44,927 nucleotides of DNA from a virus, in the IMG/VR virus record IMGVR_UViG_3300045988_159056; one strand, given 5' to 3'. Below, piece after piece: positions 7,787-44,927 of this stretch (position 1 is its first letter; every line of letters begins with the position of its first letter). Made by a program: the position numbers and the translations under genes. The notes beneath the pieces were generated by a model. The model was not told the origin of the DNA and did not search any database. It worked only from the letters and a program-made list of their open reading frames with translations.

Positions 7787-7810
7787 TATTAACTTCAAAA
7801 TTTTGTATAT

Positions 7811-10012
7811 ATGAAATTTAAGAGCTTTTCCGCTCATATTCTGGCTTTATTGGGCTTGTCGGAATGGAGCAGGGTAGAGGACAAAAACTCTATCACAGTC
7901 GAGGAAGTGGCAAAACTGAAAAATTACGGTTTTACCGAAAAATTCCTCACGGATTTTAAGGCGTCCCTTGAAAATGATTTCCAGGACGAAACCGAAGACG
8001 GGGGACAGGGAGAGGGAAACGATGAACCCAAAACTACCGCTTTCCTCCGTGGCCTGTTGGGTGACACTGCCGCCCGTCTGACGCAGGCGCAAGAACAGCT
8101 TGAGGCACTGCAAGCACAACAGAGTGAGGAAGACAGAAACAACACGGCGGCAATAGCCAAAAAAGATGCGGAAATCAAAAAGCTTTCCGGTATTATCGCC
8201 CAACTTTCGGAGGCTTCCGAAAACGATCCGGGCAAAGGCACACAGCACAGCGCACACATGGACGGTAAAGGAAAGTTTAATTTGCAGGACGAAAAACAGC
8301 TGGGAGGCTTGCAGGGTGAAATGTTCTCACTTGACCGCCCGTATAACCTTCGCGCCAAAGCCGCATTAATGGAAGCTGCCGGTTTTGAAATGATCGCTCT
8401 TCCGAAAGCAAGTTCCATGGATTACAGCCGTTTGAAGGAAGATCTTGGAGCATTTTACCGTATCCCATGGCAACAGCGTTTGCAGTCGTTTTTAATGGAA
8501 CTTCCTTCCATTGAAAGTATTTTCCCGCTTGAATCCGGTTATCAGGACCTGGCTACGTTGGTTAATATCTGGCTGGGTGAGTTCTCACAGGCCGGTAATG
8601 AGGAATCCGACTTTGACAAGGTGACTAAGGGTTCTTATGAGTTCGACGACGAAACCCTGCGTATGTTCAACGTGATGTTTGCGCACCGTTTTAAAAATTT
8701 AAAGGCTCTGGAGAAAACCTGGATCGGCACTTTGAACAAGGAAGGTTCAAACCCTATAAAATGGTCTTTCATCGAGTACATCCTGGCCGAAACAGCGAAG
8801 AAGTTGCATAACGAGCGTGAACAACGCCGTATTAACGGAATCCGTAAAGATCCGAATTTGAACGAACCGGGCAAAGCACTTGCCGCGGCTGACGGACTGT
8901 ATGAGTTCTTGAATAAAAAAGTGAACGGACATACCGATATCAATAACGGAAAGCTCGTTTACCAGATCAAGCCGTTCGAGTTGGGAGAAATTACCGAAGC
9001 AAACATCGGTGAAAAAGTGTACAAGGGTACTTCCATGATTCCGGCCGTTCTTCGTGATAGCGGAAACCTGGCACTTTATATGCCTTCTCACTTCATTGTA
9101 TTGTATCATAAATACAATGAATTGCATTACGGACAGAATCAGGATTACAAGGCTAACATTATGTACGTCAAGGAATACCCGGGGGTAAAGATTATTCCCG
9201 TGCCTAATGCGGATAACCACCACCGTATCTTCTGGACGTTTGAAGGCAACATTAAGACGTTTGAGGACAAACCGGGTGAAATGACAGCGTTCAATCTGGA
9301 ACAGGAGGACTGGAGTTTGAAAGTCTGGAGTAACTGGCGTGAATCTATCTGGGCTATTGCCGTAGGCTTCAAATATACGAAGAAGGAAGATATGGACTAT
9401 ACGCGCCAGATGATCTTCTGTAATGAGTACGACCGCCCGGCGTCTTACTTTGTGGATGCTGACAAGGACAAGAACCCGTCGGCCAAACTTCACACGTCCA
9501 TTGTTACCGTAGCTAATACGGCCGAATTTGCTATTACCGATATTGAAGATGCGCCGGTAGGTGCGGTTATTTCCCTGAAATGCGGAAGCGTGGATAAGGG
9601 TGTTAAGATCGAGAAAAGCGGAAATTTCAGTCTTATTGACGACGATTGGGAACCTGGCAAGGGAGATGTTATCAAACTGATGAAACGTGCCGACGGTAAA
9701 TTTATCGAGATCAGCCGCGAAAATGCCTCTTCCGATGCGTTGCAGTTTGCGCCGGATGAAACGGCACCTTCCTTGCTTGACGGCGAAGTATTTGTTACCG
9801 GTGTAAATACAAAGGCAACGGCAATCACCAACTTTACTGATGCGGAAGCCGGAATCGTTTATACGATTTACGGAAACGGTTCTGAAAATGCTTCTACCAT
9901 TGCTAACGCTGGAAACTTTGTCCTTACCGAAGCTATGACGCTTTCCGAAGGCAAGTTTATCAAATTGGCAAAAGCTTCTGACGGTAAATTCTACGAAGTG
10001 GCAAGAGGCTAA
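7811..10012 (+). CDS. Major capsid protein candidate with an N-terminal scaffold/delta-like coiled coil and two C-terminal ~55-aa repeat modules
   Basis: 733 aa, immediately after the protease. Acidic coiled coil (LTQAQEQLEALQAQQSEED). Tandem C-terminal repeats at 9560-9718 and 9851-10006. Confidence 0.6.
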   Translation: MKFKSFSAHILALLGLSEWSRVEDKNSITVEEVAKLKNYGFTEKFLTDFKASLENDFQDETEDGGQGEGNDEPKTTAFLRGLLGDTAARLTQAQEQLEALQAQQSEEDRNNTAAIAKKDAEIKKLSGIIAQLSEASENDPGKGTQHSAHMDGKGKFNLQDEKQLGGLQGEMFSLDRPYNLRAKAALMEAAGFEMIALPKASSMDYSRLKEDLGAFYRIPWQQRLQSFLMELPSIESIFPLESGYQDLATLVNIWLGEFSQAGNEESDFDKVTKGSYEFDDETLRMFNVMFAHRFKNLKALEKTWIGTLNKEGSNPIKWSFIEYILAETAKKLHNEREQRRINGIRKDPNLNEPGKALAAADGLYEFLNKKVNGHTDINNGKLVYQIKPFELGEITEANIGEKVYKGTSMIPAVLRDSGNLALYMPSHFIVLYHKYNELHYGQNQDYKANIMYVKEYPGVKIIPVPNADNHHRIFWTFEGNIKTFEDKPGEMTAFNLEQEDWSLKVWSNWRESIWAIAVGFKYTKKEDMDYTRQMIFCNEYDRPASYFVDADKDKNPSAKLHTSIVTVANTAEFAITDIEDAPVGAVISLKCGSVDKGVKIEKSGNFSLIDDDWEPGKGDVIKLMKRADGKFIEISRENASSDALQFAPDETAPSLLDGEVFVTGVNTKATAITNFTDAEAGIVYTIYGNGSENASTIANAGNFVLTEAMTLSEGKFIKLAKASDGKFYEVARG

Positions 10013-26954: not shown

Positions 26955-29900
26955 ATGGCAAAATTAAAACCTGACTACATCGAATGGGTGTTAACCCTGA
27001 ACGCATCCGACGCACAGAAAGAAATACATAATCTTTCAGAAAAAAACAAGGAACTCCGGGATAGCAATAAGGAGATAAAAAAGTCCATGACCGATTTAAT
27101 CGCCGCCGGAAAAGCCGGTGGTAAACAATGGAAAAATCTAAATGAACGGCTGAAAGAGAATAATAAAACGATCGGTGAAAATAATAAGAAAATTGCCGAG
27201 TGCGAGAAACGGTTGGATAAAACCACCATGAGCGCGAACCAGCTTGCCAGGAAAGCCAATGCCTTACGGAAAGAGCTTCGCGATACGGTGAAATCCTTGC
27301 AACCGGAAAGATATGCCGCTCTGGAAAAAGAACTGAAAGAGGTAGAGAAAGCATACGGGCAGGCAACGAAAAAAGCCGAAGGGTTCGGTTCTTCCCTTCT
27401 TTCCTTGAATAAGATAAAAACAGTTCTGGCCGGTGTGTTTGTAACTATCGGTGCGATGATTACCGGGCAAATTGTCGGCGGGTTGAGAGATGCAATCAGT
27501 ACTATTGTGGAGTTTGAGAAGAAAAATAGTACTTTGGCCGCTATCCTGGGAACCACGAAAAAGAGTATCAAAGATTTAACGGATGAAGCGCGCCGACTGG
27601 GTGCTACTACTTCTTACACAGCCGCACAGGTAACGGAACTTCAGATAGAGCTTGCCAAGCTGGGATTTTTTAAGGAAGATATTAAAGCGATGACGCCTTC
27701 CGTGTTGAAATTCGCTAAGGCGGTAGACACGGATCTTGCTTCGGCTGCTACGCTTGCCGGTGCAACATTGCGTATTTTCAATCTTGATGCAGAAGATACG
27801 GAACGGGCTGTTTCTACCATGACTATGGGATGTAACGCATCCGCTTTAAGTTTTGAATATTTAAATACCGCTATGTCTACCGTTGGTCCGGTTGCTAATT
27901 CCTTCGGATTCACGATCGAAGAAACTACCGCTCTTTTGGGGGCTTTGGCAAACAGCGGTTTCGACGCTTCTTCCGCAGCAACGGCAACGCGTAATATCCT
28001 GCTTAATCTGGCTGACGGTACCGGCAAGCTTGCTCTTGCGCTTGGCGGTCCGGTTAATAACCTGGCGGATTTGGTAAAGGGACTTAAAAAGTTAAACGAT
28101 GAAGGAATAGACTTGAACAAAGCTCTTGAAATGACCGATAAACGTTCCGTTGCAGCCTTTAATACTTTCCTTAACGGGACTGATACCGTATTGGCTCTTT
28201 CCGGTGCGGTTACGGGTGCGGAAGACGCTTTTAACGCCATGGCCGAAGAAATGGGTGACAACGTGCAGGGATCATTAAACGTATTAAGTTCCACTATTGA
28301 AGGAGTTGTTTTACGGTTCTACGAATCGAAGGGAATTTTACGTGATTTGATCGATTTTGTTACATTCCTGGTAGAAGGCGTTGGTAACATGATTGATATG
28401 TTTAATAAATGGGGAGTTGTCACTTATACCGTTACAGCTTATCTGGTTGCTTATTACGGCGGGTTGAAGATCGCTACTATGTGGCAGGCGCGTTTTAAAA
28501 CGGCTACGCTTGCTTCGGTTGTCGCTGAAAAGGCGCACGCCGTACAGCTATATATTAGCCGTGCGGCTGCTTTGGCTTATGCGGCAGCCCAGGCGTTACT
28601 ACACAAAAATACTACCAGATGTACGGCAGCACTTCGGTTAATGAGGATCGAACTTTTGAAGAATCCTTATACGGCTTTGGTTGCGGTTATATTGGCGGCG
28701 GGAGTTGCTATTTACCAACTTGTTAAAAAAAATAAGGAGGCGACAGAATCGGTTAAAGCCTTGGGATCGGCAATGGAAAGAACTACAAAACGATATGATG
28801 AACAGAAAGCGAAAGTTAAAGCTTTGATTGACGCCATACATGATGAAAATATTTCCAATACATTACGGGAAAAGAAAATACGTGAATTGAAAGAGCTAAT
28901 TCCCGATTATAATGCGGAGTTAAGCAAGGAAGGAAAGGTTATACGAGAAAATAAAAAAGCCATAGACGAATATTTAACTTCCCTGGAAAAACAGATAAAG
29001 GCGGAAGCATTCAGGGAAGAACTGATCGAGTTATACAAAAAGAAATTTCCGAAAGAAAGGGAATTGGAAAAGAATAAAGAGGAAGAAGCAAAGGCTTCCA
29101 ATTCCTTAGCCGGTGCACGTATTGGGGCTTCCATGCGTTCTTCCACTCTTTCAACACCCGGGACAAAAACTCTTAATCAGGGCTTAGACCAGAATGTTAA
29201 GAGCATGGAAACAGAGTATCGAAATGCCAAAAAGAAAACGGAACAAACCGAGAAGGATTTAAAGGAAATAACAGACGCTATTGCTGTTATTAATCGGGAA
29301 CTTTTAACTACGGAAATGCAAATTTCATCCGTAGGTACCACTAACGTAGACAACGTAGTAAAAGAAACTTCAAAAATTAAACTATTGGAGGCTGAAAAGA
29401 AAAAGGTTCAGGAACAGTGGGCGGAAGACAGCGAAGCGAATATCGCCAAGAAAAACAAGGAAATAGAACGCATTGACGCTGAAATAAAACGTTTAAATGA
29501 ACTGGGGAAGGTCAAAAAGAAAGCGGAAGCTGGGGAGTATAAAAATACGGAAACGGACGCTACATTAAAACCTCTGGAGATTGAACATCAAAAACGTATG
29601 CTTCTTATCAAACAGAACCGGGAGAAGGAAAATAAGACGGAAGCCCAGTACATTCTCGAAGGGACGGCGGAAAATCTTCGTTATTACCGGGAACGTATTA
29701 ACGCACTTCAAAAACTGGAGGCAAAAACACCGGCTAATAAAAAGAAATTACTCGATGAAATCCATAAACTCGAAACCGAGGCGGAAACCGCTATTTTTAC
29801 AGAAACCGGCAAACAGGAAGACGCCCGTATCAAGCTGGCACAAGAGAAACGGGATGAACGGTTAAAGATTGAAACCGCTTATTACAATATCCAGAAGGAC

Positions 29901-31298
29901 ACCATGGAAAAAGCGGTATTAAATCAAAGTATTACACAGGAAGCGGCTGACGCCTATATGCTGGAAGTTGAAGCGGAACACACTGCGGAACTCCTGGAAA
30001 TAAACCGTACCTATCAGAATGATATAAACGCTTTGGAATTTAGCGGGGAACAGAAACGACTGAACGCGGTTACGGAAGCGGCGGATGCTGTTCGTAATTC
30101 TGAAATGCAATTATTACGGGATAGAGCGGCTATTGCTCAAAAAGTTCGTGAAATAACATCCGTTCCGATAGGAATAACCGGTATGCAAGAGGCACACCGG
30201 AAACAGGTTCAGGATGTAGAAACGACTTATAACGCCATAATTGAGATAGCAAGACAGGCCGGGATTTCTACGGTCAGTCTGGAAAAACAAAAGCAACAGG
30301 AAATTAATCGGTTAGATTTCCAGTATCAGAATGATTTATACCAGATACAAGCACAAATCGGCGTATCATGGGCACAAGAATACCAAAACGAACTGGCATT
30401 ATTAAGAAACTTACACGATCAGGGATTAATAAACGAAAAGACATATCAGCGTAAGAAGCTGCAACTGCAGATGAATAATGCTAAAAAATACTTTGACTAT
30501 TATTCCGGTCTTTCCTCTTCCATGGTGGAAGCTATTCAGCAAGCCGAAATCGACCAGGTGGAAGCGAAATACGATGTTCTCATACAAGAGGCTGAAAACA
30601 ACGGGGAAGATACTGCCGCTTTGGAAGAAGAGAAAGAAAATAAGAAACTGGAGATTCAAAAGAAGTATGCGGATGTAAATTTTGCCATCAAATGTTCCCA
30701 GATCATAGCAGATACGGCCGTTTCAATAATGAAAGCATATGCAGACCTCGGCCCCATTGCCGGAACCGTAGCTGCAGTAATGTTGGGGGCTACCGGTATT
30801 GCCCAGCTTGCATCCGCTAAGGCCGAACGGGATAGAATTAAAAATATGTCCCTGAAAAATACTACCGGTAGCAAAAAAAATACGGCGGAGCGTGTTGTTT
30901 CCGGATCTTCCGGTGGGGGATACTCGGAAGGTGGTTATACCGGTCCCGGTGGTCGTTATGAAGTGGCCGGAGTTGTTCACAAAGGGGAATATGTCGTACC
31001 ACAACCGGAGATGAATAATCCTAAAGTAATTGACGCGGTTAGCACGATCGAAGCGATCCGGCGGCAGCGTACCAGTGCCAACCCATTACCACAAAACCCG
31101 GGTGAATATGCGGAAGGCGGTTACGTCACTTCTCCTGCAGGGGATTCTTCTTACCGGGAGTTTCTGGAAGCAACTAAAGAGCTTCGCGCCTCTTGTGAGG
31201 CTATCAAGCTTATAAAGGCTTATATCGTATACCAGGATTTGGAAAAGGCTAAAGAAACCATAGATAACGCCCGCGATACCTTTACACGCGGAAAATAA
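26955..31298 (+). CDS. Tail tape measure protein
   Basis: 1447 aa. Long coiled coils, a TP901-type core (AILGTTKKSIKDLTDEARRLGATTSYTAAQVTELQIELAKLGF), central TM segments and a Gly-rich C-terminus. Confidence 0.9.
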   Translation: MAKLKPDYIEWVLTLNASDAQKEIHNLSEKNKELRDSNKEIKKSMTDLIAAGKAGGKQWKNLNERLKENNKTIGENNKKIAECEKRLDKTTMSANQLARKANALRKELRDTVKSLQPERYAALEKELKEVEKAYGQATKKAEGFGSSLLSLNKIKTVLAGVFVTIGAMITGQIVGGLRDAISTIVEFEKKNSTLAAILGTTKKSIKDLTDEARRLGATTSYTAAQVTELQIELAKLGFFKEDIKAMTPSVLKFAKAVDTDLASAATLAGATLRIFNLDAEDTERAVSTMTMGCNASALSFEYLNTAMSTVGPVANSFGFTIEETTALLGALANSGFDASSAATATRNILLNLADGTGKLALALGGPVNNLADLVKGLKKLNDEGIDLNKALEMTDKRSVAAFNTFLNGTDTVLALSGAVTGAEDAFNAMAEEMGDNVQGSLNVLSSTIEGVVLRFYESKGILRDLIDFVTFLVEGVGNMIDMFNKWGVVTYTVTAYLVAYYGGLKIATMWQARFKTATLASVVAEKAHAVQLYISRAAALAYAAAQALLHKNTTRCTAALRLMRIELLKNPYTALVAVILAAGVAIYQLVKKNKEATESVKALGSAMERTTKRYDEQKAKVKALIDAIHDENISNTLREKKIRELKELIPDYNAELSKEGKVIRENKKAIDEYLTSLEKQIKAEAFREELIELYKKKFPKERELEKNKEEEAKASNSLAGARIGASMRSSTLSTPGTKTLNQGLDQNVKSMETEYRNAKKKTEQTEKDLKEITDAIAVINRELLTTEMQISSVGTTNVDNVVKETSKIKLLEAEKKKVQEQWAEDSEANIAKKNKEIERIDAEIKRLNELGKVKKKAEAGEYKNTETDATLKPLEIEHQKRMLLIKQNREKENKTEAQYILEGTAENLRYYRERINALQKLEAKTPANKKKLLDEIHKLETEAETAIFTETGKQEDARIKLAQEKRDERLKIETAYYNIQKDTMEKAVLNQSITQEAADAYMLEVEAEHTAELLEINRTYQNDINALEFSGEQKRLNAVTEAADAVRNSEMQLLRDRAAIAQKVREITSVPIGITGMQEAHRKQVQDVETTYNAIIEIARQAGISTVSLEKQKQQEINRLDFQYQNDLYQIQAQIGVSWAQEYQNELALLRNLHDQGLINEKTYQRKKLQLQMNNAKKYFDYYSGLSSSMVEAIQQAEIDQVEAKYDVLIQEAENNGEDTAALEEEKENKKLEIQKKYADVNFAIKCSQIIADTAVSIMKAYADLGPIAGTVAAVMLGATGIAQLASAKAERDRIKNMSLKNTTGSKKNTAERVVSGSSGGGYSEGGYTGPGGRYEVAGVVHKGEYVVPQPEMNNPKVIDAVSTIEAIRRQRTSANPLPQNPGEYAEGGYVTSPAGDSSYREFLEATKELRASCEAIKLIKAYIVYQDLEKAKETIDNARDTFTRGK

Positions 31299-35304: not shown

Positions 35305-38300
35305 ATGGATATAAAGAATTTTAAAGACGGTGATTCAGGGAAGGAAGTTCGCCAGTGTATTGAGGAAAATTTTAAAAACCTGAACGAATTTAAGACGGGG
35401 TATCAGGATAAGGTTGACGGACCGGACGGAAAATCCTCTATTTTACGTTCGTTTGCTTCCGAAGCTGACAGGGATCTATACGAATCGGACACGGAGAAGT
35501 ATGCGGCTAAATTGCTATATCAGGTTATCATACCGGCCATGAACGCTTCCTCCAGTATAGCGACTTTACGGATATCCGTAACGGAAGCACCGTCCGCGAT
35601 TGTGGCGGAAAACGCACGGGTAGCACTGGGATTTACTTATTACTCGTTTTACGATGAAATAACGGAACCGAACGCGACAAAAGGCGTCGTTAAGTTTACA
35701 ATTAACGGAACACAGGTCGCCGACCTGACAAGTGAACTTGTACACCGTGAAAGTTATGTGTTTGACTTGACACCTTATTTGATCGTAGGGGATAATAGTA
35801 TAATTGCTATCGTGAACAATAACGACGGATCGCAGCGTACGCTTTCCTATAATGTAAGTGTAAGGCAGCTTTCTGTTTCCCTTGTCGGTTTTAACCAGAT
35901 GGAGGCAAAGGCGGGAGCTTTTAATATAACGGCTAAAGTTGTGGGATCGGCGGCAACTGTATTTGTATTGGTGGACGAACAGCAAGTGGCGGCAGGCACC
36001 GTTAACGCCGGGGCACAACGGGCATTTGTCATTCCGGCACAGGAAACAAACGGGGTGCATACAATTTCGATTTACGCGACGGCTACGGACGTAGCGATAA
36101 CGACAGACACGCAAGTGTATGAGTTTATTTCGGATGTTGACGGATCACCGGCTATCGGAGTGGATTTTCCCGTTCAGGCGGCAACGGTCTATGATACCAT
36201 TGTTTTAAGATATTGGGTGTTCAGTAAAGCCGTCGAGGGAGCAATACCGGTAAGAATGAGCATAGAATCATCCGACGGGCAGGAATTGTTTGCGGGAGAG
36301 GATAACGTAACGTTGACCGGCGGAGTTTCCGCGATGACCGCCTGGAATATCCCATTAACAAACGAAGAGTATATCGGTGATATAACCCTGGTGCTGGAAG
36401 CGGCTGGCGTAAGAAGGGAATTGCCGTTACATGTCAATATGATTGATGATGTAACCCTTGCACCTGCGAGTGATTGCCGTTTATTCCTTGCATCCGCCGG
36501 ACGTTCCAATACCGCATCAAACAAGGCGCAATGGATCAGCAAAGAGAAGGACGCACCGGAAATTGCGGCCATTTTCTCGGAAAGCTTTGATTTTTCGGAA
36601 AACGGAAGCGGCTGGAATACGGACAGCGACGGAAATGTGGCGTGTCATATCAGAAGCGGGGCACGCGTTACCATACCTTATACGCCTTTTGATAAAAATT
36701 ACGGGCAAGGTAATGACTTGGATAATCCGGGAACCAAGACGGGTAAAATGATAGAAGTGGAACTGGCAACACGTAATTGTGTAAACATGAATGCGCCGGT
36801 TCTTACCTGTTATGATTCGGTTAACGGTGTGGGTATTAAAATTTTTGCCAACGGTACGACTTTTTCTTCTTCCGGATCATCCACGTTTACAGACTTTAAA
36901 GAGGAAACCCACATAAGACTTGGATTTATGGTCGAATGTGACGAACAGGCCGACCGCTGTTTTATGTCTGTAATTGCCGACGGTGTACCACAAGGAATTA
37001 CGGTATATAGCAAGGCGGACACCTTCAAACAGGCAACCCCGCAGCAAATTGTGATCGGTTCCGATGAATGTGATGTGGATCTATATGCGATCCGTGTCTA
37101 TGACAAAAGCCTTACTATACAGGAGATTATAGGAAATTATGCTTATGATACCCCGAAAGCGGCCGATAAAGTGGCAATTGCCCGGAGAAATGACGTTTTC
37201 GATAATGCGGGTAATGTCAATTATGCGAAATTGCGCAAGGCACTTCCGAATCTTCCGATCCTGGTACTGGAAACTCCATCCTTACCGGCAGTAAAAGGGG
37301 AAAAAACACCGGTACCAAGTACCACCTTTGAAAACCCGCTTTCTACGGGGGTGGATGATGCACCCTCATTTACTGCGGAAAATGCGGTGAATGATGTACA
37401 AGGTACGTCTTCTTCCAAAATCGAGGCGACGGAACCGGAGGGGGAGTTCAAATACCGGAACTACAAGGAAGATTATAAAGAAGGATTCCTTCCGGTCGGA
37501 TTGCCGGAAAAATTAATCAAATACCAGTTGAAGAAAGGGTTGCCCGGCGAAAAGAAATTTTGCTATAAAATAAATTATATGTCTTCCGAGATGTGTAATA
37601 ATACCGTCCTTGCAGAATTGTATAACCGTGTGGCCGTCAGTGCGGGACTTCTTACCGGGCCACAGCAGGAACAGGAGGAAGAAGGGAAGGAAGTGACATA
37701 CCGACAGACTATTTTCGGTTTTCCCATGTGCATATATTGGAAGAAACCGGGAGAATCCCGGATGAAATACGTCTCAATGTTCGATTTCAACAATGACAAG
37801 GGAAACTTGAATATACTTGGTTTTGACCGGGACAAATATCCGAAGGCTGAAATATGGGAAGTATCGGACAATATTACATTTTTCGATCATCCATATCGGG
37901 GATGTTGGGTGGATGAAACGGGTAAAATCCAGAACGACATAACGGCGGAGTTTGAAAGCCGGTTGCCGGGAGATTCGGAGGTAAACGAGGATTGCGCATA
38001 CGGGGAAGCTAAGACAGAAGGACAGGTGGAACAGGCTAATAAGGAATGCGCCTCCCTTGTACGCTTCTGTAATTGGATGTATTCAACTAATCAGGAATTA
38101 GCAACAGGGAAACCCCTTTCACAAACATACACAGATAAGGACGGAAAAGAATATACGGTCGATAATGCGTCTTATCGCCTGGCTAAATTTTTGACGGAGA
38201 AAGACGAGTATCTGGACTGGGAAAAGGTGACATATTACTACAATTTCACGGCACGCCACCTGATGATTGATTCCCGGGCAAAAAATATGCACCTGGTAAC

Positions 38301-40713
38301 AGAAGACGGAATACACTTTTACCCCGTTCTTTATGACGCCGATACAGCGGAGGGCAACGATAATAACGGTAAGTTGAGTTATCCCTATTATTATGAGGAT
38401 ACCGATCTGGATGCCGGGGGGAATGTCGTGTTTAACGGTCAGAAAAGTGCCTTATGGATAAATGTCCGGGAAGGGTTTGCGGAAGCGATTGCCACACAGG
38501 ACAGGACTTTACGTTCTTCCGCCGGTTATAGCTACGAAGAGGAAAAGGCCCTGTTTGATTCTCACCGCGAACAGTGGTGTGAGGCTTTATTTGCGTATGC
38601 GGCATGGGCTTTATATAAGAATAATCCCGCGTATATAGAAGCCGCGCTCGGAGATAAAAAACATCAGCGTAATTACTGGATGTACTATTCATACCGGTAT
38701 TGGGACAGTAAGTTTCATTCCGGGGATGCACCCAAAAATAACCTGGTGTTACGTGTTTGGGGACGTGGCGCGGATTTAACCGTAGTGCCTTACTGCTGTC
38801 TGTATCCGCGTGCGGAATGGGGATCTACAAATAAAGTGACAACGCAGCGTTGCCTGGATTTGAAAAACGGGGTGACTTTCAAAAATCAGATTGATTCGGA
38901 CGTTTCTAACTTTATCATTTATGTTTTTTCTTCTGATCTGATTGTTGATCTGGGGGATTTGTCGCAGATGGGAGATATACAGATTGATGATGTAGGAGCG
39001 GCACCGAGATTAAGACGGTTGCTCATCGGAAGGGACGAAGAAGGATTCGTAAACAAGCGTACAAAAACACTCTCTTTGAATAAGAACCGTATGCTCGAGG
39101 AGTTGGATATTTCTAATTGTGAGGGATTCGGATTGCAAAACGACGGGACTTATAAAAATTATACACTGGATTTGTCAAACAACACATTATTGAGAGCGTT
39201 ACGCGCGAAAGGAAGTACGGTAACAGGATTCAGTTTGCCACAGACGGACAAACTGGAGACATTGCAGTTACCCGAAGGACTTACTACGCTCGCACTTATC
39301 AACCTTCCGAACCTGGGAAAGAACGGCGGAGATTTTTCCATTCTCGATACTTCCGAACTTGTTTCCGTTTCTATTCGTAATTGTCCGGCGGTGGATTCGC
39401 GGGCAATAATCGAGGACTGTTTGTCGCATGAAGTACAAAAGTTGGCAAATGTAAATATTACCGATATCCTCTGGAATGATTTCTCTTTGGATTATCTTTT
39501 CAGACTTGCAGAGATGAAGGCGGAACTTACAGGAGTCATTAACTTGAAACAGGATTCTGCCAATATGCCAAATTTTGCACAAAAAAGAGCGATGCTCGAA
39601 GCTTTCGGAGACATTGACGATCCGGATAATAAATTATATGTAACTTATCGGGTAATGAGAATGAACGCACCTGTAATTTCCGGGAATGGCTATTATCCGG
39701 ATACCGGTACTTACCAGATGGTATATGCGGCAACGCCTTCCACGGCCAACAACTTCCGCCGGGCAAAATGGAGTATAACAACAAACAGCTACGCCGATAT
39801 TACGGAAGATGGAGTTTTAACCGTAAAGAAAGTCGGCGGGGCAGGAGCTGCGGAAGTTACCCTTACAATGGAATTATTAGGCGGAGAGGAAATATCATCT
39901 ACTAGAAAGATCTTCTTTTATTTGCCTGATCCCAAACCGGGGGATTATGTATATTGTGACGGTTCGTATTCCGACATTTACGACGCAAACCGTTCCGTAA
40001 TCGGTATTTGTTTCTATGTTAACGGAAATGACAGACGGATGATCGCTATTGATAATCTGGCAACCGTACCGTGGGGACGTAATGACCTGGATATACCGGA
40101 TTTGAAAAATTATACTGTTGTGGACGGGGCCAACAGTTCGTTGACCATTAGCGATGAAACTTACCGGGAAAATGACAATACGACATTTAAAGAGTTTATT
40201 TCGGGAGCCCTTTCCGACTGGGACGGCAAGAAGAATACCGATAGGATGCACGAACAGGCTTTATATGCACTGCAATCCAATGGATTATATATACCCCAAA
40301 ATATGCGCGAACTGGTTCAGGAAATGGCAAATATAACCGACGACACAACAAGGAGGCTATATTATCCGGCTTCATTCTATTGCAAGATGTATGAGCCTAA
40401 AATAAAAAATAATGAGATGTTGAACGGGAAGTTTACGGCGGGAAATTGGTACCTACCGTCATGCGGAGAATTGGCACGTATTGTTTTCTATGCCCTGAAA
40501 GGATACATCAAAGGGGAAGAAGGTACGGACCTGGCAATATTTGCGGATGCGGCAACAAACGGAATATTTGCGAAAATATCGGCTAATTGGATTTGGTCGA
40601 GTACGGAGTGCCATTCGAACTTCGCGTGGAACGTGAATGGTGCTTCCGGTCAGGTGATCAGTGGTTACAATAAGGCGAGCAGTAGCGTCGTGCGTTGTGT
40701 CGCCGCATTTTAA
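35305..40713 (+). CDS. Giant tail fibre / receptor-binding protein, the DGR target, with a C-terminal DUF1566/C-type-lectin-fold-like domain carrying the VR
   Basis: 1802 aa. LamG-like DLYAIRVYDKSLTIQEIIGNY. Leucine-rich repeats (about 39040-39420). Big_2-like ITEDGVLTVKKVG. C-terminus NWYLPSCGELARI...WIWSSTECHSNFAWNVNG...VVRCVAAF. Confidence 0.85.
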   Translation: MDIKNFKDGDSGKEVRQCIEENFKNLNEFKTGYQDKVDGPDGKSSILRSFASEADRDLYESDTEKYAAKLLYQVIIPAMNASSSIATLRISVTEAPSAIVAENARVALGFTYYSFYDEITEPNATKGVVKFTINGTQVADLTSELVHRESYVFDLTPYLIVGDNSIIAIVNNNDGSQRTLSYNVSVRQLSVSLVGFNQMEAKAGAFNITAKVVGSAATVFVLVDEQQVAAGTVNAGAQRAFVIPAQETNGVHTISIYATATDVAITTDTQVYEFISDVDGSPAIGVDFPVQAATVYDTIVLRYWVFSKAVEGAIPVRMSIESSDGQELFAGEDNVTLTGGVSAMTAWNIPLTNEEYIGDITLVLEAAGVRRELPLHVNMIDDVTLAPASDCRLFLASAGRSNTASNKAQWISKEKDAPEIAAIFSESFDFSENGSGWNTDSDGNVACHIRSGARVTIPYTPFDKNYGQGNDLDNPGTKTGKMIEVELATRNCVNMNAPVLTCYDSVNGVGIKIFANGTTFSSSGSSTFTDFKEETHIRLGFMVECDEQADRCFMSVIADGVPQGITVYSKADTFKQATPQQIVIGSDECDVDLYAIRVYDKSLTIQEIIGNYAYDTPKAADKVAIARRNDVFDNAGNVNYAKLRKALPNLPILVLETPSLPAVKGEKTPVPSTTFENPLSTGVDDAPSFTAENAVNDVQGTSSSKIEATEPEGEFKYRNYKEDYKEGFLPVGLPEKLIKYQLKKGLPGEKKFCYKINYMSSEMCNNTVLAELYNRVAVSAGLLTGPQQEQEEEGKEVTYRQTIFGFPMCIYWKKPGESRMKYVSMFDFNNDKGNLNILGFDRDKYPKAEIWEVSDNITFFDHPYRGCWVDETGKIQNDITAEFESRLPGDSEVNEDCAYGEAKTEGQVEQANKECASLVRFCNWMYSTNQELATGKPLSQTYTDKDGKEYTVDNASYRLAKFLTEKDEYLDWEKVTYYYNFTARHLMIDSRAKNMHLVTEDGIHFYPVLYDADTAEGNDNNGKLSYPYYYEDTDLDAGGNVVFNGQKSALWINVREGFAEAIATQDRTLRSSAGYSYEEEKALFDSHREQWCEALFAYAAWALYKNNPAYIEAALGDKKHQRNYWMYYSYRYWDSKFHSGDAPKNNLVLRVWGRGADLTVVPYCCLYPRAEWGSTNKVTTQRCLDLKNGVTFKNQIDSDVSNFIIYVFSSDLIVDLGDLSQMGDIQIDDVGAAPRLRRLLIGRDEEGFVNKRTKTLSLNKNRMLEELDISNCEGFGLQNDGTYKNYTLDLSNNTLLRALRAKGSTVTGFSLPQTDKLETLQLPEGLTTLALINLPNLGKNGGDFSILDTSELVSVSIRNCPAVDSRAIIEDCLSHEVQKLANVNITDILWNDFSLDYLFRLAEMKAELTGVINLKQDSANMPNFAQKRAMLEAFGDIDDPDNKLYVTYRVMRMNAPVISGNGYYPDTGTYQMVYAATPSTANNFRRAKWSITTNSYADITEDGVLTVKKVGGAGAAEVTLTMELLGGEEISSTRKIFFYLPDPKPGDYVYCDGSYSDIYDANRSVIGICFYVNGNDRRMIAIDNLATVPWGRNDLDIPDLKNYTVVDGANSSLTISDETYRENDNTTFKEFISGALSDWDGKKNTDRMHEQALYALQSNGLYIPQNMRELVQEMANITDDTTRRLYYPASFYCKMYEPKIKNNEMLNGKFTAGNWYLPSCGELARIVFYALKGYIKGEEGTDLAIFADAATNGIFAKISANWIWSSTECHSNFAWNVNGASGQVISGYNKASSSVVRCVAAF
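40603..40708 (+). repeat. DGR variable region (VR)
   Basis: Aligns without gaps to 41197-41302. The 6 mismatches are all opposite TR adenines. It ends 5 nt before the target-gene stop. Confidence 0.9.
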
Positions 40714-40751
40714 ACTTTAAACTTTAATATACAACAAGGTACATTAAGAAC

Positions 40752-41108
40752 ATGGGGAAAGTTAGCGATCTGAAAGTGTATAACGATGTTGAATTATTGG
40801 CCGGATGGGTGTTGGACATATCGGCCAACTTTCCTAAACAATATAGATACATTACGGAACGGCTGGTAAATACCATCTTTGATTGCATGGATGATATAAC
40901 ACTTGCTAATTTACGTGAGGGTACCGAACGGGCAATGTTTCTTGACGCATTCGTGGTACATTTTACATCGGTGAAAACCATTCTAAGAGTATGCACCCGG
41001 AAACGGATTCTTTCTGTTAATAATGAAGCCCTTTTTTTGCGGTCGTCCGCAAATATAGGCAGGCAGATAGCCGGATGGAAACGGGCAGCATTGAACCAAA
41101 ATCGTTAA
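40752..41108 (+). CDS. avd: DGR accessory variability determinant (Avd-like)
   Basis: 118-aa basic, predicted helical protein between target and TR, the canonical avd position and size. Confidence 0.7.
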   Translation: MGKVSDLKVYNDVELLAGWVLDISANFPKQYRYITERLVNTIFDCMDDITLANLREGTERAMFLDAFVVHFTSVKTILRVCTRKRILSVNNEALFLRSSANIGRQIAGWKRAALNQNR

Positions 41109-41115
41109 GGCGGTT

Positions 41116-42528
41116 ATGGCAGTGTATAATTTAATTCCAAATGGGTGCCCTACTGGAAAGATACTTCCAGTTACGAACAAGATACAGGGTATGATAACGG
41201 AGTACCATTCGAACATCGCGTGGAACGTGAATGGTGCTTCCGGTCAGGTGAACAGTGGTAACAATAAGGCGAACAGTAACGTCGTGCGTTGTGTCGCCGC
41301 ATCTGGGGAATTATACAGTGTACTGTTAGAATCATTTGTAGAAGCGTACCACGATTGCATTCTAAATAAAATGTCAAGTCCGCAATGTTGTGAATTTAGG
41401 GCCGATTACGAAGACCGTTTGTATGACCTTTATTTGCTGGTTATACAGGGTGTTTATTTCCCCTTGAAATCACGTTGTTTTATTGTTACCAGACCATTAT
41501 ATAGAGAAGTGTTTGCTGCGGATTTTCAGGACCGTATAATACATCATTGGATTTGTCTACGGTTAGAACCCTTGTTTGAGAAGCGTTTTACAGAGTTGGG
41601 CAATGTTTCGCATAATTGCAGAAAATATTTTGGAACGGAAAGCGCGGTACGGGCACTATCTAAAGATATATATGATTGTAGCAACGGGTTTACAGAAAGT
41701 TGCTGGGTAGCAAAATACGACATTTCCGGTTTCTTCATGTCGATAGATAAAAGGATCGCATGGGAATTACTTAATGAACTTATCAATACACATTATCACG
41801 GAACCGATAAGGAATGTTTGTTATATCTTACACGCATAACGGTATTTCATTTGCCGCAGGAACACTGCATAAAGAGATCACCGGAGTGCTTATGGGATAT
41901 GATACCGGGTAATAAATCATTGTTCGGGAACGATCCGTTTAAGGGTATGCCAATCGGTAATCTTCCCTCTCAACTGATAGCAAATTTCTATCTGTCTTTC
42001 TTTGATGAGTTTGTTTTATCCTTGGGATTTGAGTATTACGAGAGATACGCGGACGATTTTGTACTGGTGCATAGGGATAAGAACTTTATATTAGAAGCGA
42101 TACCGCTTTTTGAAAGATTCTTATGGGATAAATTGAAATTAAAACTACATCCGGACAAGAGATACCTGCAGCACTACACAAAAGGAATACAGTTCGTAGG
42201 AGCCGTTATTAAAATGGACCGGATATATGTAGGAAATAGAACCGTCCGTAATACCCGGCAGGCTATAAGATGTATAAATAAAGAGTTGGAGGCCGGAAAT
42301 CCATTATCGGACGGTATGATATCACGTCTTAACAGCTATTTCGGGTTTATGAGGAAAAGAAAGGCATACGCCATACGGCGCGGGCTTGCAAAGGAATTTT
42401 CCCCTTTACTCTGGAACAAGGTGTATATGACAAATCATTTTTTCACGGTTAAAATAAAAATGAAGTATGATGAATTATTCCAATATCGACAGGAAACGAT
42501 TAGGAACACCCGACACCGTGTTGCTTAA
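41116..42528 (+). CDS. DGR reverse transcriptase (start codon uncertain; the ORF contains the TR in frame)
   Basis: MPIGNLPSQLIANFYL (DGR-type motif 4) and RYADDFVLV (YADD). In-frame start candidates: ATG 41116, ATG 41191, GTG 41227, 41248 and 41284, ATG 41371. Confidence 0.9.
   Translation: MAVYNLIPNGCPTGKILPVTNKIQGMITEYHSNIAWNVNGASGQVNSGNNKANSNVVRCVAASGELYSVLLESFVEAYHDCILNKMSSPQCCEFRADYEDRLYDLYLLVIQGVYFPLKSRCFIVTRPLYREVFAADFQDRIIHHWICLRLEPLFEKRFTELGNVSHNCRKYFGTESAVRALSKDIYDCSNGFTESCWVAKYDISGFFMSIDKRIAWELLNELINTHYHGTDKECLLYLTRITVFHLPQEHCIKRSPECLWDMIPGNKSLFGNDPFKGMPIGNLPSQLIANFYLSFFDEFVLSLGFEYYERYADDFVLVHRDKNFILEAIPLFERFLWDKLKLKLHPDKRYLQHYTKGIQFVGAVIKMDRIYVGNRTVRNTRQAIRCINKELEAGNPLSDGMISRLNSYFGFMRKRKAYAIRRGLAKEFSPLLWNKVYMTNHFFTVKIKMKYDELFQYRQETIRNTRHRVA
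41197..41302 (+). other. DGR template region (TR)
   Basis: 106 nt, about 27 adenines by hand count, rich in AAC/AAT codons. A-free 3' segment gtcgtgcgttgtgtcgcc is identical to the VR. Confidence 0.9.
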
Positions 42529-42532
42529 ATCC

Positions 42533-42862
42533 ATGGCGTTACCGGTAGAATATGAGGACGGGATTTATATTGTCCGGTGGGATATACGGACTATTTTTCC
42601 GGATGATGGAACACAGAAAAATCCCCTGGTTACGTTCGCATCCTGGACCGGTAGAGAATATCCGGGAATAGAACGGATAAAGACATGGTTAGAAGAATAT
42701 TATAACGGGAAAATCCCGGGAAACATAAACTTAAAAGATTACAGGTATGAAAGAATTAGAGTTTACAACCTACGTAAAACGTCCGGAAATGCTGGAGAAA
42801 AGCGTCCAGGCGTGCGTGCCTCACTGGACGATAAATATCGACAGTCGGCAGATAGAAAATGA
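42533..42862 (+). CDS. Hypothetical protein. Its 3' third overlaps the next ORF
   Basis: ATG 42533 (MALPVEYEDGIYIVRWD...). The last ~38 codons are Arg/Lys-rich and overlap ORF 42747-43118. Confidence 0.4.
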   Translation: MALPVEYEDGIYIVRWDIRTIFPDDGTQKNPLVTFASWTGREYPGIERIKTWLEEYYNGKIPGNINLKDYRYERIRVYNLRKTSGNAGEKRPGVRASLDDKYRQSADRK

Positions 42863-43118
42863 GTTGGGAATATTGGTTTATAAACAGGAAGTTGTAAGGC
42901 TGGAAGGGGAATTAACCTATGATAAGATAGTTTCCGCGATCATAAACGCGAAATATTCCATAGACGACCAGACGGCTATATTAATGAACGCAATGAACCC
43001 GAATCTTCTTACAGAAGAGAAGGAAGCGGACTACTATCAGGAGATGAAAGACTTTCAGGCATGGAGGGACAAAGCTAAAAATATAGCTTCCGTAATAATG
43101 GATAAATTGCCGTTCTGA
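42747..43118 (+). CDS. Hypothetical protein
   Basis: 123-aa ORF with normal-looking composition. Confidence 0.5.
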   Translation: MKELEFTTYVKRPEMLEKSVQACVPHWTINIDSRQIENELGILVYKQEVVRLEGELTYDKIVSAIINAKYSIDDQTAILMNAMNPNLLTEEKEADYYQEMKDFQAWRDKAKNIASVIMDKLPF

Positions 43119-43161
43119 AACGGAAAAGATACGTTTTGTTAAATGATCAATTTTAGGAGTT

Positions 43162-43509
43162 ATGAAACAGCTTATTAAAAAACTGTTCGGGTGGATGAAG
43201 GAAAGTAACCGCCCGGCACACATGAAGGCGGGCAATACAATTTTTGTAATCGTCTTAATTGTTTTTACACTTTTAGGGGGAATATTGCTTAACCCTTTGT
43301 TAGAAGGTTATTCTTATGAAGGCAGCAGCCGTTTGTTTATTCTGGCTATGATCCAGGCTCTTATTGTAGTCTTTATTGCAATGTGTTCAGTAGAATATAT
43401 TCAAGAACGGATGGGGTGTAAATGGGACTGGCTGGATATTGCGGCCGGATGTTTAGGTTCTGTTTGTATAACCGTGTTTACAATCTTGCTTGTCTTGCTG
43501 ATAATATAA
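43162..43509 (+). CDS. Multi-TM membrane protein next to int (lysogenic-conversion/exclusion candidate)
   Basis: 115 aa with three hydrophobic segments. Last + strand gene, convergent with int. Confidence 0.55.
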   Translation: MKQLIKKLFGWMKESNRPAHMKAGNTIFVIVLIVFTLLGGILLNPLLEGYSYEGSSRLFILAMIQALIVVFIAMCSVEYIQERMGCKWDWLDIAAGCLGSVCITVFTILLVLLII

Positions 43510-43519
43510 GGGATAGGCA

Positions 43520-43553
43520 GCGGAACCGGCCATCAGCTTCCGGACGGTTCCGC
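43520..43553. terminator. Bidirectional hairpin between convergent genes
   Basis: gcggaaccg (43520-43528) pairs with cggttccgc (43545-43553). Confidence 0.5.
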
Positions 43554-43569
43554 CTTAACCTCTCTTGCT

Positions 43570-44715
43570 TTATAGCATATCATCAAAGGCACGTATTCCT
43601 TTTTCGCGTTCGTCTTCCAAAGCGTGGGCATATACCATTGTCATGGTTATAGAACTATGTCCTAAAAGATGGGATAACGTTACAATGTCATGCGTTTTTT
43701 TATAATATAATGTAGCAAAGGTATGTCGGCCTGTTTTCGAGCTGATATCCTTTGTTATTCCCACTTTACCGGCTATTGTTTTCAATACCCGGTTTATATC
43801 CTGATCAGTGGGAAGGTTCATAAACAGGTTTCCTTTTGTGCGTCCGCCTCGGTAGTACTCATAAATGTAACGCGCCGGATCCGATAAAGGTACGGTAACC
43901 TGTATCTTGGTTTTGCCCCGTGTGTAATGCAGTTCATCACCTATAAACTGGCTTATCTGTAACGCTTTTGCATCACTGATATGTAGAGATGTGAAGCAAA
44001 GGAATAGAAAAAAGCGAAGCACGTTCTGGGTACATTCTTCCAGACGGCCGGAACGGTACAAGGCAGTAAGGCGGAGCAGTTCTTCTTCCGTCAGGTATAC
44101 GACTTCACTTTTAGGACGGCGTATTTTGATTGCCGCGAACGGGTCCTGATCCATATAACCGCCACGGATGGCGGCACCTACATATATTTTTATCGTGGCC
44201 ATATTACGCCATGCCGTAGAATCCCTGTTGCCTATTTTACGAAGATGTGCAAAGAAGGACATGAGAAATTCGTGAGTAATTTCTGAAAACACAAGGCCGG
44301 GTGCAAACGTTTCTAATTTCTTAATAATGGATACATGATGTTTGTAAGTGCCGAAAGAAAGTGTTTTGCTTATCTGTTTTAAATAAACCCTTGCGAAATC
44401 AAAGAAGGTACCAAAATCGGAAGGATTGTTATACCGGCGGAAAAAACTTTCCTTTGTCAGCGTCTCATTTTTAAGACGGGCACGGACAAATATGTCGCTT
44501 ACACGTGATCGGATATTAGAAATAATTAAATTCTTGTCTTTGGCTTCCTTATCCCGGCCTTTCACCATTTCGTTTTGTTCATCCCATTCTTTGGAGGTAA
44601 CACTCATTTTTACCGCGATCCTTATTTTCTCACGGTTGATATAAAATTCCACATACAGGGGGAGTCGGTCGGTCTTGCCTTTTTTGCCTTGTCTTACAAT
44701 TCTTATTGCCGTCAT
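43570..44715 (-). CDS. int: Tyrosine recombinase / phage integrase (Bacteroides type with an N-terminal arm-binding domain)
   Basis: 381 aa. GRHTFATLYY and LLGHSSITMTMVYAH (box II with the catalytic Tyr). Box I reads CFTSLHISDAKAL. Confidence 0.9.
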   Translation of the reverse strand: MTAIRIVRQGKKGKTDRLPLYVEFYINREKIRIAVKMSVTSKEWDEQNEMVKGRDKEAKDKNLIISNIRSRVSDIFVRARLKNETLTKESFFRRYNNPSDFGTFFDFARVYLKQISKTLSFGTYKHHVSIIKKLETFAPGLVFSEITHEFLMSFFAHLRKIGNRDSTAWRNMATIKIYVGAAIRGGYMDQDPFAAIKIRRPKSEVVYLTEEELLRLTALYRSGRLEECTQNVLRFFLFLCFTSLHISDAKALQISQFIGDELHYTRGKTKIQVTVPLSDPARYIYEYYRGGRTKGNLFMNLPTDQDINRVLKTIAGKVGITKDISSKTGRHTFATLYYKKTHDIVTLSHLLGHSSITMTMVYAHALEDEREKGIRAFDDML

Positions 44716-44718
44716 TTT

Positions 44719-44769
44719 TATATGCCTATTTTATGCCTGTAGAGGGGATATGCCTACAAATATGCCTAC
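44719..44769 (+). promoter_or_regulatory. Cluster of ATATGCCTAC-type direct repeats (candidate integrase arm sites, attP P arm)
   Basis: atgccta at 44722-44728, atgcctg at 44733-44739, atatgcctac at 44748-44757 and 44760-44769. Immediately upstream of the int start. Confidence 0.5.
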
Positions 44770-44872
44770 ACAGGCTGGTTATTAAAAGTTAAACGGGGCG
44801 AAAGTAAAACGTTTAATATCAGCTATTTAAAAGAAAAATCCGATAACATTTAACTGTTACCGGATGTTAATA

Positions 44873-44927
44873 GTGATTCAAGTAACGTTCTTTAATCGCC
44901 TGATTATTAATTGTTTACATAATTGTA
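44873..44927. repeat. Terminal direct repeat copy 2, identical to 1-55
   Basis: Exact 55-nt identity with the window start. Confidence 0.95.

Follow-up and report, generated by a model that had tools for sequence, protein, structure and literature searches.

Adenine-directed variation at the 3' end of a giant tail-region gene points to a functional diversity-generating retroelement in a temperate gut phage

The IMG/VR virus record IMGVR_UViG_3300045988_159056 is a stretch of 44,927 nt, referred to below in its full length as the window, in which two near-identical repeats flank a small gene: the first repeat closes a very long open reading frame (ORF), and the second precedes the conserved core of a reverse transcriptase (RT). 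This arrangement raises the question of whether the repeats are the variable repeat (VR) and template repeat (TR) of a diversity-generating retroelement (DGR) that still rewrites its target gene and, if so, what the diversified protein might do. In gut phages, targeted hypervariation of proteins is known mainly from DGRs. We are highly confident that the locus (Table 1) is a functional DGR, with a complete target-avd-TR-RT cassette, in a temperate tailed phage of Bacteroides-type gut bacteria. Systems of this kind are well known, and only an RT reading frame that spans the TR and a tandem motif that follows the VR go beyond the ordinary.

Direct reading, a repeat finder and a script agree on a 106-nt repeat with 94% identity and a spacing of 594 nt, and all three reproduced the VR and TR coordinates and the ungapped offset, a multiple of 3, that were given in a preliminary description of this DNA. 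From TR to VR, the copies differ by six changes (A41204>G, A41215>T, A41252>T, A41260>T, A41273>G and A41279>G), each at a TR adenine and exactly where that description had listed it. The affected codons are AAC in four cases, as had also been claimed, and TAC and ATC in the remaining two. Given the base composition of the TR (27 A, 79 non-A), the probability that six random mismatches would all fall on A is P=1.7e-4 (hypergeometric). The VR comprises the last 35 codons of the ORF at 35305-40713 and ends 2 nt before its last sense codon is complete. Near the 3' end of each copy lies the same A-free 18-nt segment, GTCGTGCGTTGTGTCGCC, which starts at 40687 in the VR and at 41281 in the TR. With adenines masked, a scan of the full window on both strands found neither a third repeat copy nor a second VR, which indicates that the element has a single VR. 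The theoretical diversity is ~10^15 peptides if every TR adenine is mutable and ~10^11 protein variants if one counts the adenine sites actually seen varying. The repeat observation in the preliminary description was therefore correct in every detail.

The remaining parts of the cassette had been described as a 118-residue Avd-like ORF and an RT with IGNLPSQ and YADD motifs, in the same gene order as in Bordetella phage BPP-1. Both ORFs and both motifs are present, the Avd passes the Pfam threshold, and the BPP-1 record does read mtd-avd-TR-brt. The Avd also matches phrog_3206 ('Avd protein of DGR', E=8.6e-14), scores 32 bits against NCBIfam DivGenRetAVD, under its cutoff of 80, and is 30% identical to the Avd of Bacuni_F1. 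In DGR RTs, the signature [I/V/L]GxxxSQ replaces QGxxxSP (10.1101/2020.04.29.068544). The best match of the window RT in the PDB is 8ub7, a 328-residue chain titled 'Reverse transcriptase', which we identify as Bordetella bRT since its aligned residues match the BPP-1 Brt translation. In this alignment, the equivalents of bRT R74 and I181 are conserved in the window RT; Arg74 and Ile181 promote adenine mutagenesis by bRT (10.1101/2020.04.29.068544). Matches of the RT to the NCBIfam group II intron, retron and Drt models were all far under their cutoffs.

In a small neighbor-joining tree (372 columns, 100 bootstraps) that includes three group II intron RTs and one retron RT, the window RT falls within a clade with 100% bootstrap support that also contains bRT, the RT of a Legionella pneumophila plasmid DGR, a cyanobacterial RT and gut-phage RTs including that of Bacteroides phage F2. 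Outside this clade lie the sampled group II and retron RTs, whose corresponding motif is QGxxxSP or EGxxxSP, so that the window RT groups with DGR RTs, apart from those of group II introns and retrons, as the preliminary description had supposed. The same tree places the Hankyphage RT outside the clade. Beyond gut phages, the Legionella plasmid RT is the nearest match (40.5% identity), and the closest RTs from cultured phages are those of Bacteroides phages F2, F4 and Bacuni_F1 (39-41% at the amino acid level). Relatives with 81% RT identity occur in a contig of Bacteroides acidifaciens DSM 15896 and in a mouse-gut metagenome-assembled genome. The former contig (L016, NODE_151, 2849 nt) has ~152x coverage according to its name, possibly a sign of a phage that replicates actively or is present in multiple copies in that type strain.

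Activity was judged by comparing assembled contigs. Over 10.2 kb, two IMG/VR contigs, L001 and L002, match the window with 99.7% identity. They differ from each other at 13 positions in 10,226 nt, and 12 of these differences lie inside the 106-nt VR (Fisher P=1e-23). Similarly, the window and L001 show 8 differences within the 106 nt of the VR versus 24 in the other 10,120 nt (P=9e-10). Among close relatives, the TRs are identical or nearly so and the VRs vary. Because near-identical contigs carry different VRs, rewriting of the VR is more recent than almost all other divergence, and the element has been active recently in natural populations. The IMG dataset 3300045988 supplies L001, L002 and ~35 of the related contigs L021-L100. 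A 'same sample' label for L001 and L002 is to be read with caution, as this one dataset id yields a large share of the related contigs.

The adenine specificity of the changes extends to more distant elements. A metagenome collection was searched by the VR-flank pattern alone, with the interior of the repeat left free, and this unbiased harvest yielded 7 more two-repeat elements. Among 11 related elements, TR adenines take 94 of the 97 VR/TR mismatches. A TR/VR pair lies directly 5' of the RT in 73 of 79 evaluable loci whose RTs are 41-48% identical, and in those 73 more distant cassettes 717 of the 763 mismatches are at a TR adenine, which bears out the expectation that variation across related genomes tracks TR adenines. 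Four phage relatives in GenBank (Bacuni_F1, F2 and two unannotated fecal-phage scaffolds) show the same bias. Furthermore, lineage-specific substitutions at non-A positions of the TR (columns 10, 28-29, 48, 51, 58-63, 78, 81, 84, 87, 90, 93, 94 and 96) reappear in the cognate VR, which indicates that information flows directionally from TR to VR, and we interpret the mirrored substitutions as the signature of repeated TR-to-VR copying. The copied tract spans at least columns 8-96 of 106. The idea that the repeats are an ordinary duplication modified by random drift or recombination, with the adenine pattern arising by chance, has in its favor nothing except the small number of mismatches (six) in a single copy, and we regard it as refuted by the mismatch counts in the related elements and by the probabilities for L001 and L002 (4e-7 each), as well as opposed by the probability for the window copy and by the completeness of the cassette, with its Avd and its RT of the DGR clade.

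Several observations weigh against the reading of this locus as a functional DGR that diversifies a receptor-binding protein. Three of the 97 mismatches mentioned above are at non-A positions, the window copy differs at just 6 of the 27 adenines, a count near the bottom of the range, and assembled contigs are the source of the differences by which activity is judged. The TR itself shows some variation, as window position 41216 is T and the corresponding base is A in 10 related TRs. Downstream of the VR there is no GC-rich hairpin or cruciform, with a fold no better than that of shuffled sequences (z=+1.2), and the GC-rich A-free segment is identical in VR and TR, such that the shared repeat lacks a difference between the initiation of mutagenic homing (IMH) site and its TR counterpart (IMH*). 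Within the target, the Lcl_C match at the tip (E=1.3e-6, 29.2 bits) is under the gathering score of 34.9, and the virion role, the assignment as a tail fiber and the binding of a receptor are all putative.

Some of the deviations in the repeats can be traced individually. The T at 41216 turns AAC into ATC, and the VRs of L001, L002 and L008 also have T there. At TR column 82 (L003, L013 and L014), the L003 lineage has TAC where others have AAC, which accounts for the single non-adenine mismatch of L003. Such drift of the TR looks like the hard-wiring of a favored residue into the template. At column 15 of the L006 VR, the mismatch is at a TR guanine (G to T). Non-canonical VR/TR differences occur in some DGRs (Wu et al. 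2018, PMC5758913).

These points also bear on whether the cassette is a fossil, which once diversified the VR and is now inactive in this genome, with its VR differences inherited. The small share of adenines that differ in the window and the loss of one mutable TR adenine at 41216 would fit such a history. In contrast, contigs that are 99.7-99.9% identical elsewhere carry distinct VRs that differ at TR-A sites only, every ORF of the cassette is intact, and all catalytic motifs are present. We consider decay of the element highly improbable, and taken together these comparisons make chance, duplication and a fossil cassette very unlikely explanations of the locus.

By analogy with BPP-1 and related DGRs, a transcript of avd, TR and RT would supply the template. 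The RT, in a complex with Avd and by cis-priming as in established DGR biology, would copy the TR RNA into cDNA and misincorporate opposite template adenines only. The cDNA would then replace the VR at the 3' end of the target gene through homing. Recoding would thereby hit ~12 codons, mostly AAY, within the last 35 residues of a lectin-like domain of the DUF1566/Lcl_C type.

How such a cDNA might be directed to the VR is a question raised by the missing hairpin. The preliminary description had taken the A-free 3' end of the repeats as an IMH-like boundary, and the segment is indeed A-free and identical in both copies; an identical segment alone, though, cannot tell VR from TR. Because of this identity, discrimination between the repeats must reside in the flank that follows. 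Some DGRs have identical IMH and IMH* sites, and high-quality hairpins were reported for just 34% (Wu et al. 2018, PMC5758913), which means that neither a hairpin nor an IMH difference defines a DGR. Past the shared segment, the two copies first part at the tandem units that follow the window VR (Table 1). Units of the CTTTAWC type occur after the VR in 13 of 21 non-redundant related lineages, where the 5-mer CTTTA is seen 26 times versus 0.95 expected (27-fold enriched), and just 0.4% of background windows contain two or more units; the definition of the motif is post hoc. Flanks with tandem units, which are found after the VR and not after the TR, are those of the window, L003, L017, L019-L021, L070, L071, L076, L081, L083, L084, L089, L095 and L104, and the Legionella plasmid DGR likewise carries such units after its VR. 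Lineages without tandem units have a GC hairpin directly after the VR. The tandem TTTAAAC flank is thus a candidate mark of the VR as the recipient and may take over the role of the IMH and hairpin. If confirmed, a motif found only at the VR would bear on the unsolved problem of how the cDNA chooses VR over TR.

We also considered what the element diversifies. The 1802-residue target is encoded 3' of a tape-measure gene (26955-31298, identified by PHROG matches) and two unannotated ORFs. Its PHROG matches, phrog_14959 and phrog_24896, are families of unknown function, and its Pfam matches were limited to a weak one to Big_2 and the sub-threshold one to Lcl_C at the tip. When the last 252 residues were used in an exhaustive profile-free search, 308 relatives were found. 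Among 151 proteins retrieved (150 matches and P0001), 56 are longer than 1500 residues, with dozens of 1.8-2.4 thousand residues that have the same C-terminal module; most of the long proteins among the first 60 in the list share this tip, with the pattern WSSTE...AW...K...VRxVAAF. A word-index homologue search with the tip gave a single match, and a PDB sequence search with it gave nothing meaningful. An AlphaFold2 model of the tip, built with 52 relatives as the alignment, reached a predicted local distance difference test (pLDDT) score of 90.9 and a predicted TM (pTM) score of 0.90. Foldseek matched this model in the PDB to 4eps, a Bacteroides ovatus fimbrial protein (E 5e-4), to 8q4e, the C-terminal domain of Legionella Lcl (27% identity, root-mean-square deviation 3.0), and more weakly to invasin and C-type lectin carbohydrate-recognition domains. 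In BFVD, the top matches were phage DUF1566 proteins (best TM 0.82), and some neighbors are automatically annotated as tail fiber or Peptidase S74. The Mtd protein of BPP-1 was not among the PDB sequence matches or the Foldseek matches of the tip. A target of the Mtd type was rejected, as Pfam, the model and Foldseek place the tip in the DUF1566/Lcl_C class, and the predicted structure assigns it to 'category d' (CLec2/DUF1566) as defined by Wu et al. 2018 (PMC5758913) rather than to the Mtd class.

The body of the target has a different set of relatives. By tblastn it is 24.8% identical over ~1000 residues to the 2245-residue VR-bearing ORF of Bacteroides phage p00 (Hankyphage), and it is 31.7% identical to a 1673-residue protein of phage NatCom_3357 (Ca. 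Heliusvirales; L102 8548-13566), in which BspA-type leucine-rich repeats (LRRs) take the place of a lectin tip. It is also 25% identical to a 2098-residue ORF in L019 (387-6680), which lacks a tip; the DGR target of that contig is a separate 270-residue DUF1566 protein (7498-8307). A homologue scores weakly on the Pfam CotH and LRR models. Macadangdang et al. 2024 (10.1101/2024.11.15.621889) describe a 'domain group 3' of Bacteroides DGR variable proteins, which are large (>2000 residues) and combine CotH, carbohydrate-binding and LRR domains with a lectin module. The window target fits this group, although at 1802 residues it is slightly under the quoted size. The giant protein is thus a conserved scaffold on which tips and ends are modular and interchangeable.

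We infer, from position and fold alone, that the target is part of the virion as a tail protein for adsorption and that the diversified module forms its ligand-binding tip, and a tail-fiber role is a reasonable inference from the gene position, the fold and the treatment of the Hankyphage homologue. A genuine DGR could instead act on a module that is not the host-receptor-binding tip of a tail fiber, such as an adhesin for mucus or glycans, or on a protein with another role. Consistent with this possibility, no family of known function matches the 1802-residue protein, the best structural matches of its tip are a fimbrial protein and the Lcl adhesin domain, the CotH-like and LRR-like regions of its body are atypical of fibers, and for the Hankyphage target Benler et al. 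2018 settled on no function but raised mucus adherence as a possibility (PMC6199706). Counter to it, the gene lies in the tail-gene region 3' of the tape measure, the Hankyphage homologue comes after genes for a tape measure, a baseplate hub and a minor tail protein and is treated as a putative tail fiber (PMC12135933), and annotations as tail fiber or Peptidase S74 recur among the BFVD neighbors. We consider a non-receptor role possible but less likely.

The evidence is more closely divided on where translation of the RT starts. The conserved RT N-terminus (ELYSVLLESFVEAYHDC, aligned to relatives) begins 6 nt past the TR, with the RT core from ~41308, and there is no in-frame ATG, GTG or TTG between the TR end and this N-terminus, which means that the RT coding sequence must start within or 5' of the TR. 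Candidate starts are GTG 41284, ATG 41191 and ATG 41116. The frame is open back to ATG 41116, 8 nt past the avd stop, and reads the TR in the codon phase of the VR, with ITEYHSNIAWNVNGASGQVNSGNNK as the TR-encoded peptide. An architecture class in which the TR overlaps the annotated RT ORF was recognized in the DiGReF survey (PMC3521204). We give an even chance to the proposal that the RT is translated from ATG 41116, with the TR read as part of a ~64-residue RT leader, and that the same holds in most of the RT clade.

The alternative is that the RT starts inside the 3' end of the TR, at GTG 41284, so that the frame through the TR is untranslated and the TR is purely an RNA template. In many lineages a GTG lies 7-32 nt before the TR end, the spacer between avd and TR is conserved at all codon positions, as an RNA element would be, and Wu et al. 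2018 take the TR as untranslated (PMC5758913). Substitutions in the pre-TR frame fall by codon position as 40/26/46, a weak third-position excess (p=0.06) that also fits an untranslated frame, and the pre-TR peptide sequence seems little constrained; these peptides share a loose motif (L..NG..TG ... VKNK). On the other hand, 20 of 27 related lineages have no stop in this frame as far back as an ATG that closely follows the end of avd, and the TR is in the RT frame in all 16 compact cassettes with a determinable VR frame. In 13 lineages with <80% nucleotide identity in the pre-TR segment, the RT frame has 0 stops versus 29 and 37 in the other frames, and in several lineages the nearest in-frame start lies 56-73 nt inside the TR. 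The 7 exceptions, which include Bacuni_F1, have a longer gap between TR and RT; six have their own ATG after the TR, and L020 has only a GTG. We regard the internal GTG start as possible but less likely. If translation through the TR, as suggested by the frame conserved in most lineages, is confirmed, one RNA segment would be both the 5' coding region of the RT mRNA and the mutagenesis template, cis-priming RNA elements would be packed into coding sequence, and translation and templating could be mutually exclusive or coupled in cis. Together with a tandem TTTAAAC flank in place of a GC hairpin, this organization would represent a compact variant of DGRs.

The spacer between avd and TR is the most conserved segment of the cassette, with 92% identity to the 81%-identity lineage versus 82-84% for flanking coding DNA and 69% for the VR-avd spacer. 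It contains a hairpin, and the sole change in the hairpin region of that divergent lineage adds a G-C pair to the stem. In BPP-1, the cis elements include the avd:Sp 'cPRT Stop' duplex and an Avd-binding stem-loop (Handa et al. 2024, 10.1101/2023.10.23.563531). A minimum free energy fold of the window contains a 10-bp helix, TGTATAATTT/GAATTATACA, whose strands bracket the TR. Similarly placed helices of other sequences were seen in other lineages, and cognate flanks outscored non-cognate ones by a small margin, which is weak support (p=0.013). Single bracketing helices were no better than shuffles (p about 0.3 for the window), and a version of the duplex tied to the start codon failed (p=0.11). 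The TR-bracketing duplex is thus a weak candidate for an element like cPRT Stop. An Rfam search of 40000-44927 at a permissive threshold found no RNA family.

The tyrosine integrase near the cassette points to a temperate phage, and one near-identical contig comes from a human gut metagenome. The three small ORFs between RT and integrase had no Pfam or informative PHROG match, only phrog_35068 and phrog_11557 of unknown function; at this place, Bacuni phages hold an amidase and an Arm DNA-binding protein. Likewise, ORFs of 715 and 388 residues 5' of the target had no Pfam or informative PHROG match, and no tRNAs were found in the window.

Table 1. Features of the retroelement and its neighborhood, in window coordinates
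Feature	Position	Strand	Remarks
Target gene of the DGR, 1802 aa, multi-domain	35305..40713	+	In the tail-gene region; VR at the extreme C-terminus
Conserved target body, aa 358-1361, CotH-like and leucine-rich-repeat-like	36376..39387	+	Homologous to the Hankyphage DGR target
C-terminal binding module, 252 aa	39955..40710	+	Ends in a DUF1566/Lcl_C lectin-like domain; Pfam match 40414-40701
VR (variable repeat)	40603..40708	+	Differs from TR solely at TR adenines; hypervariable between near-identical genomes
VR-specific 3' flank, TTTAAAC TTTAAAC TTTAA	40709..40727	+	Includes the target stop codon; absent after TR
avd, 118 aa	40752..41108	+	Pfam bAvd PF22296, 45.7 bits (gathering score 40)
avd-TR spacer	41109..41196	+	Most conserved cassette segment; open frame continuous with RT
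RT ORF, 470 aa	41116..42528	+	RVT_1, E=7.4e-12; phrog_1423 (phage RT family), E=1.1e-63
Candidate TR-bracketing duplex, upstream strand	41123..41132	+	Pairs with 41308-41317; minimum free energy fold
Hairpin ACTGGAA-AGATAC-TTCCAGT	41152-41171	+	Inside the avd-TR spacer
TR (template repeat)	41197..41302	+	27 A; nine AAY codons in the VR frame; TRs of close relatives nearly invariant, VRs differ
Candidate TR-bracketing duplex, downstream strand	41308..41317	+	Pairs with 41123-41132
RT motif IGNLPSQ	41953-41973	+	DGR signature [I/V/L]GxxxSQ
RT motif YADD	42046-42057	+	
Three small ORFs, 131, 123 and 115 aa	42467-42862, 42747-43118, 43162-43509		Between RT and integrase; first two overlap
Tyrosine integrase, Arm-DNA-bind_5 and Phage_int_SAM_5 (Bacteroidota-type)	43570-44715	-	Adjoins the cassette, as in Bacuni phages

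Comparison with known systems places the element among several of them. With BPP-1 it shares the gene order, adenine-only TR-to-VR differences, an Avd, the RT clade with the IGxxxSQ motif and the conserved R74/I181 equivalents, and a lectin-fold target, encoded among tail genes, with the VR at its C-terminus. In contrast to the window, BPP-1 has the 381-residue Mtd as its target rather than a giant protein with a DUF1566/Lcl_C-type tip, a GC hairpin after the VR, and a 140-nt non-coding spacer between TR and RT in place of a frame that runs through the TR to an RT core 6 nt beyond it; identity between the RTs is low.

Bacuni_F1, F2 and F4 (Hedzet et al. 2021, PMC8143477) are published DGR phages with the closest cultured RTs. 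They share the target-avd-TR-RT order followed by an opposite-strand recombinase, a DUF1566-type VR domain (35% identity over the tip) and adenine-specific mismatches (13 of 14). They differ in that the target is a stand-alone 253-residue protein, the TR is in another frame than the RT, and the RT has its own ATG after the TR. A megablast of the cassette against 50,697 phage records, including Bacuni phages and Hankyphage, gave no match.

Hankyphage (Benler et al. 2018, PMC6199706), in which DGR activity was shown experimentally (PMC12135933), shares a giant tail-region protein with a C-terminal VR, followed by a small ORF that Benler et al. likened to Avd, the TR and the RT, and the bodies of the two targets are homologous. 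Its RT is from a distant lineage (22% identity to the window RT, E 5e-4), and its VR-bearing tip is unrelated in sequence to the window tip. It has a putative transposase and possibly replicates by transposition (PMC12135933), whereas the window, which was not searched for a transposase, has a tyrosine integrase. The description of the window element as a Hankyphage variant was rejected, since neither the RT nor the VR tip is a close relative.

The L. pneumophila DGR (LdtA class, CLec2/DUF1566 'category d', PMC5758913) provides the best RT match outside gut phages and shares a DUF1566 target, a four-helix-bundle accessory protein, the order target-avd-TR-RT and a CTTTAAC-type motif directly after the VR. 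The window VR ends in ...VRCVAAF, and the end of the Legionella VR was compared at the nucleotide level only. Unlike the window, it belongs to a cell or plasmid and acts on what has been described as a surface lipoprotein (PMC5758913), has a GC-rich hairpin after the VR and has a non-coding spacer of tens of nt between TR and RT.

The window therefore adds a well-documented and evidently active DGR from an uncultured temperate phage lineage of Bacteroides-type hosts, in which an RT of the Legionella/Bacuni type and a DUF1566 tip are joined to a giant tail protein of the Hankyphage type. This combination illustrates the exchange of DGR cassettes and binding tips as modules on a conserved scaffold. 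The closest systems are the Bacuni-phage and Legionella DGRs by RT and tip and Hankyphage by target architecture, each of them closer to the window element in these respects than BPP-1.

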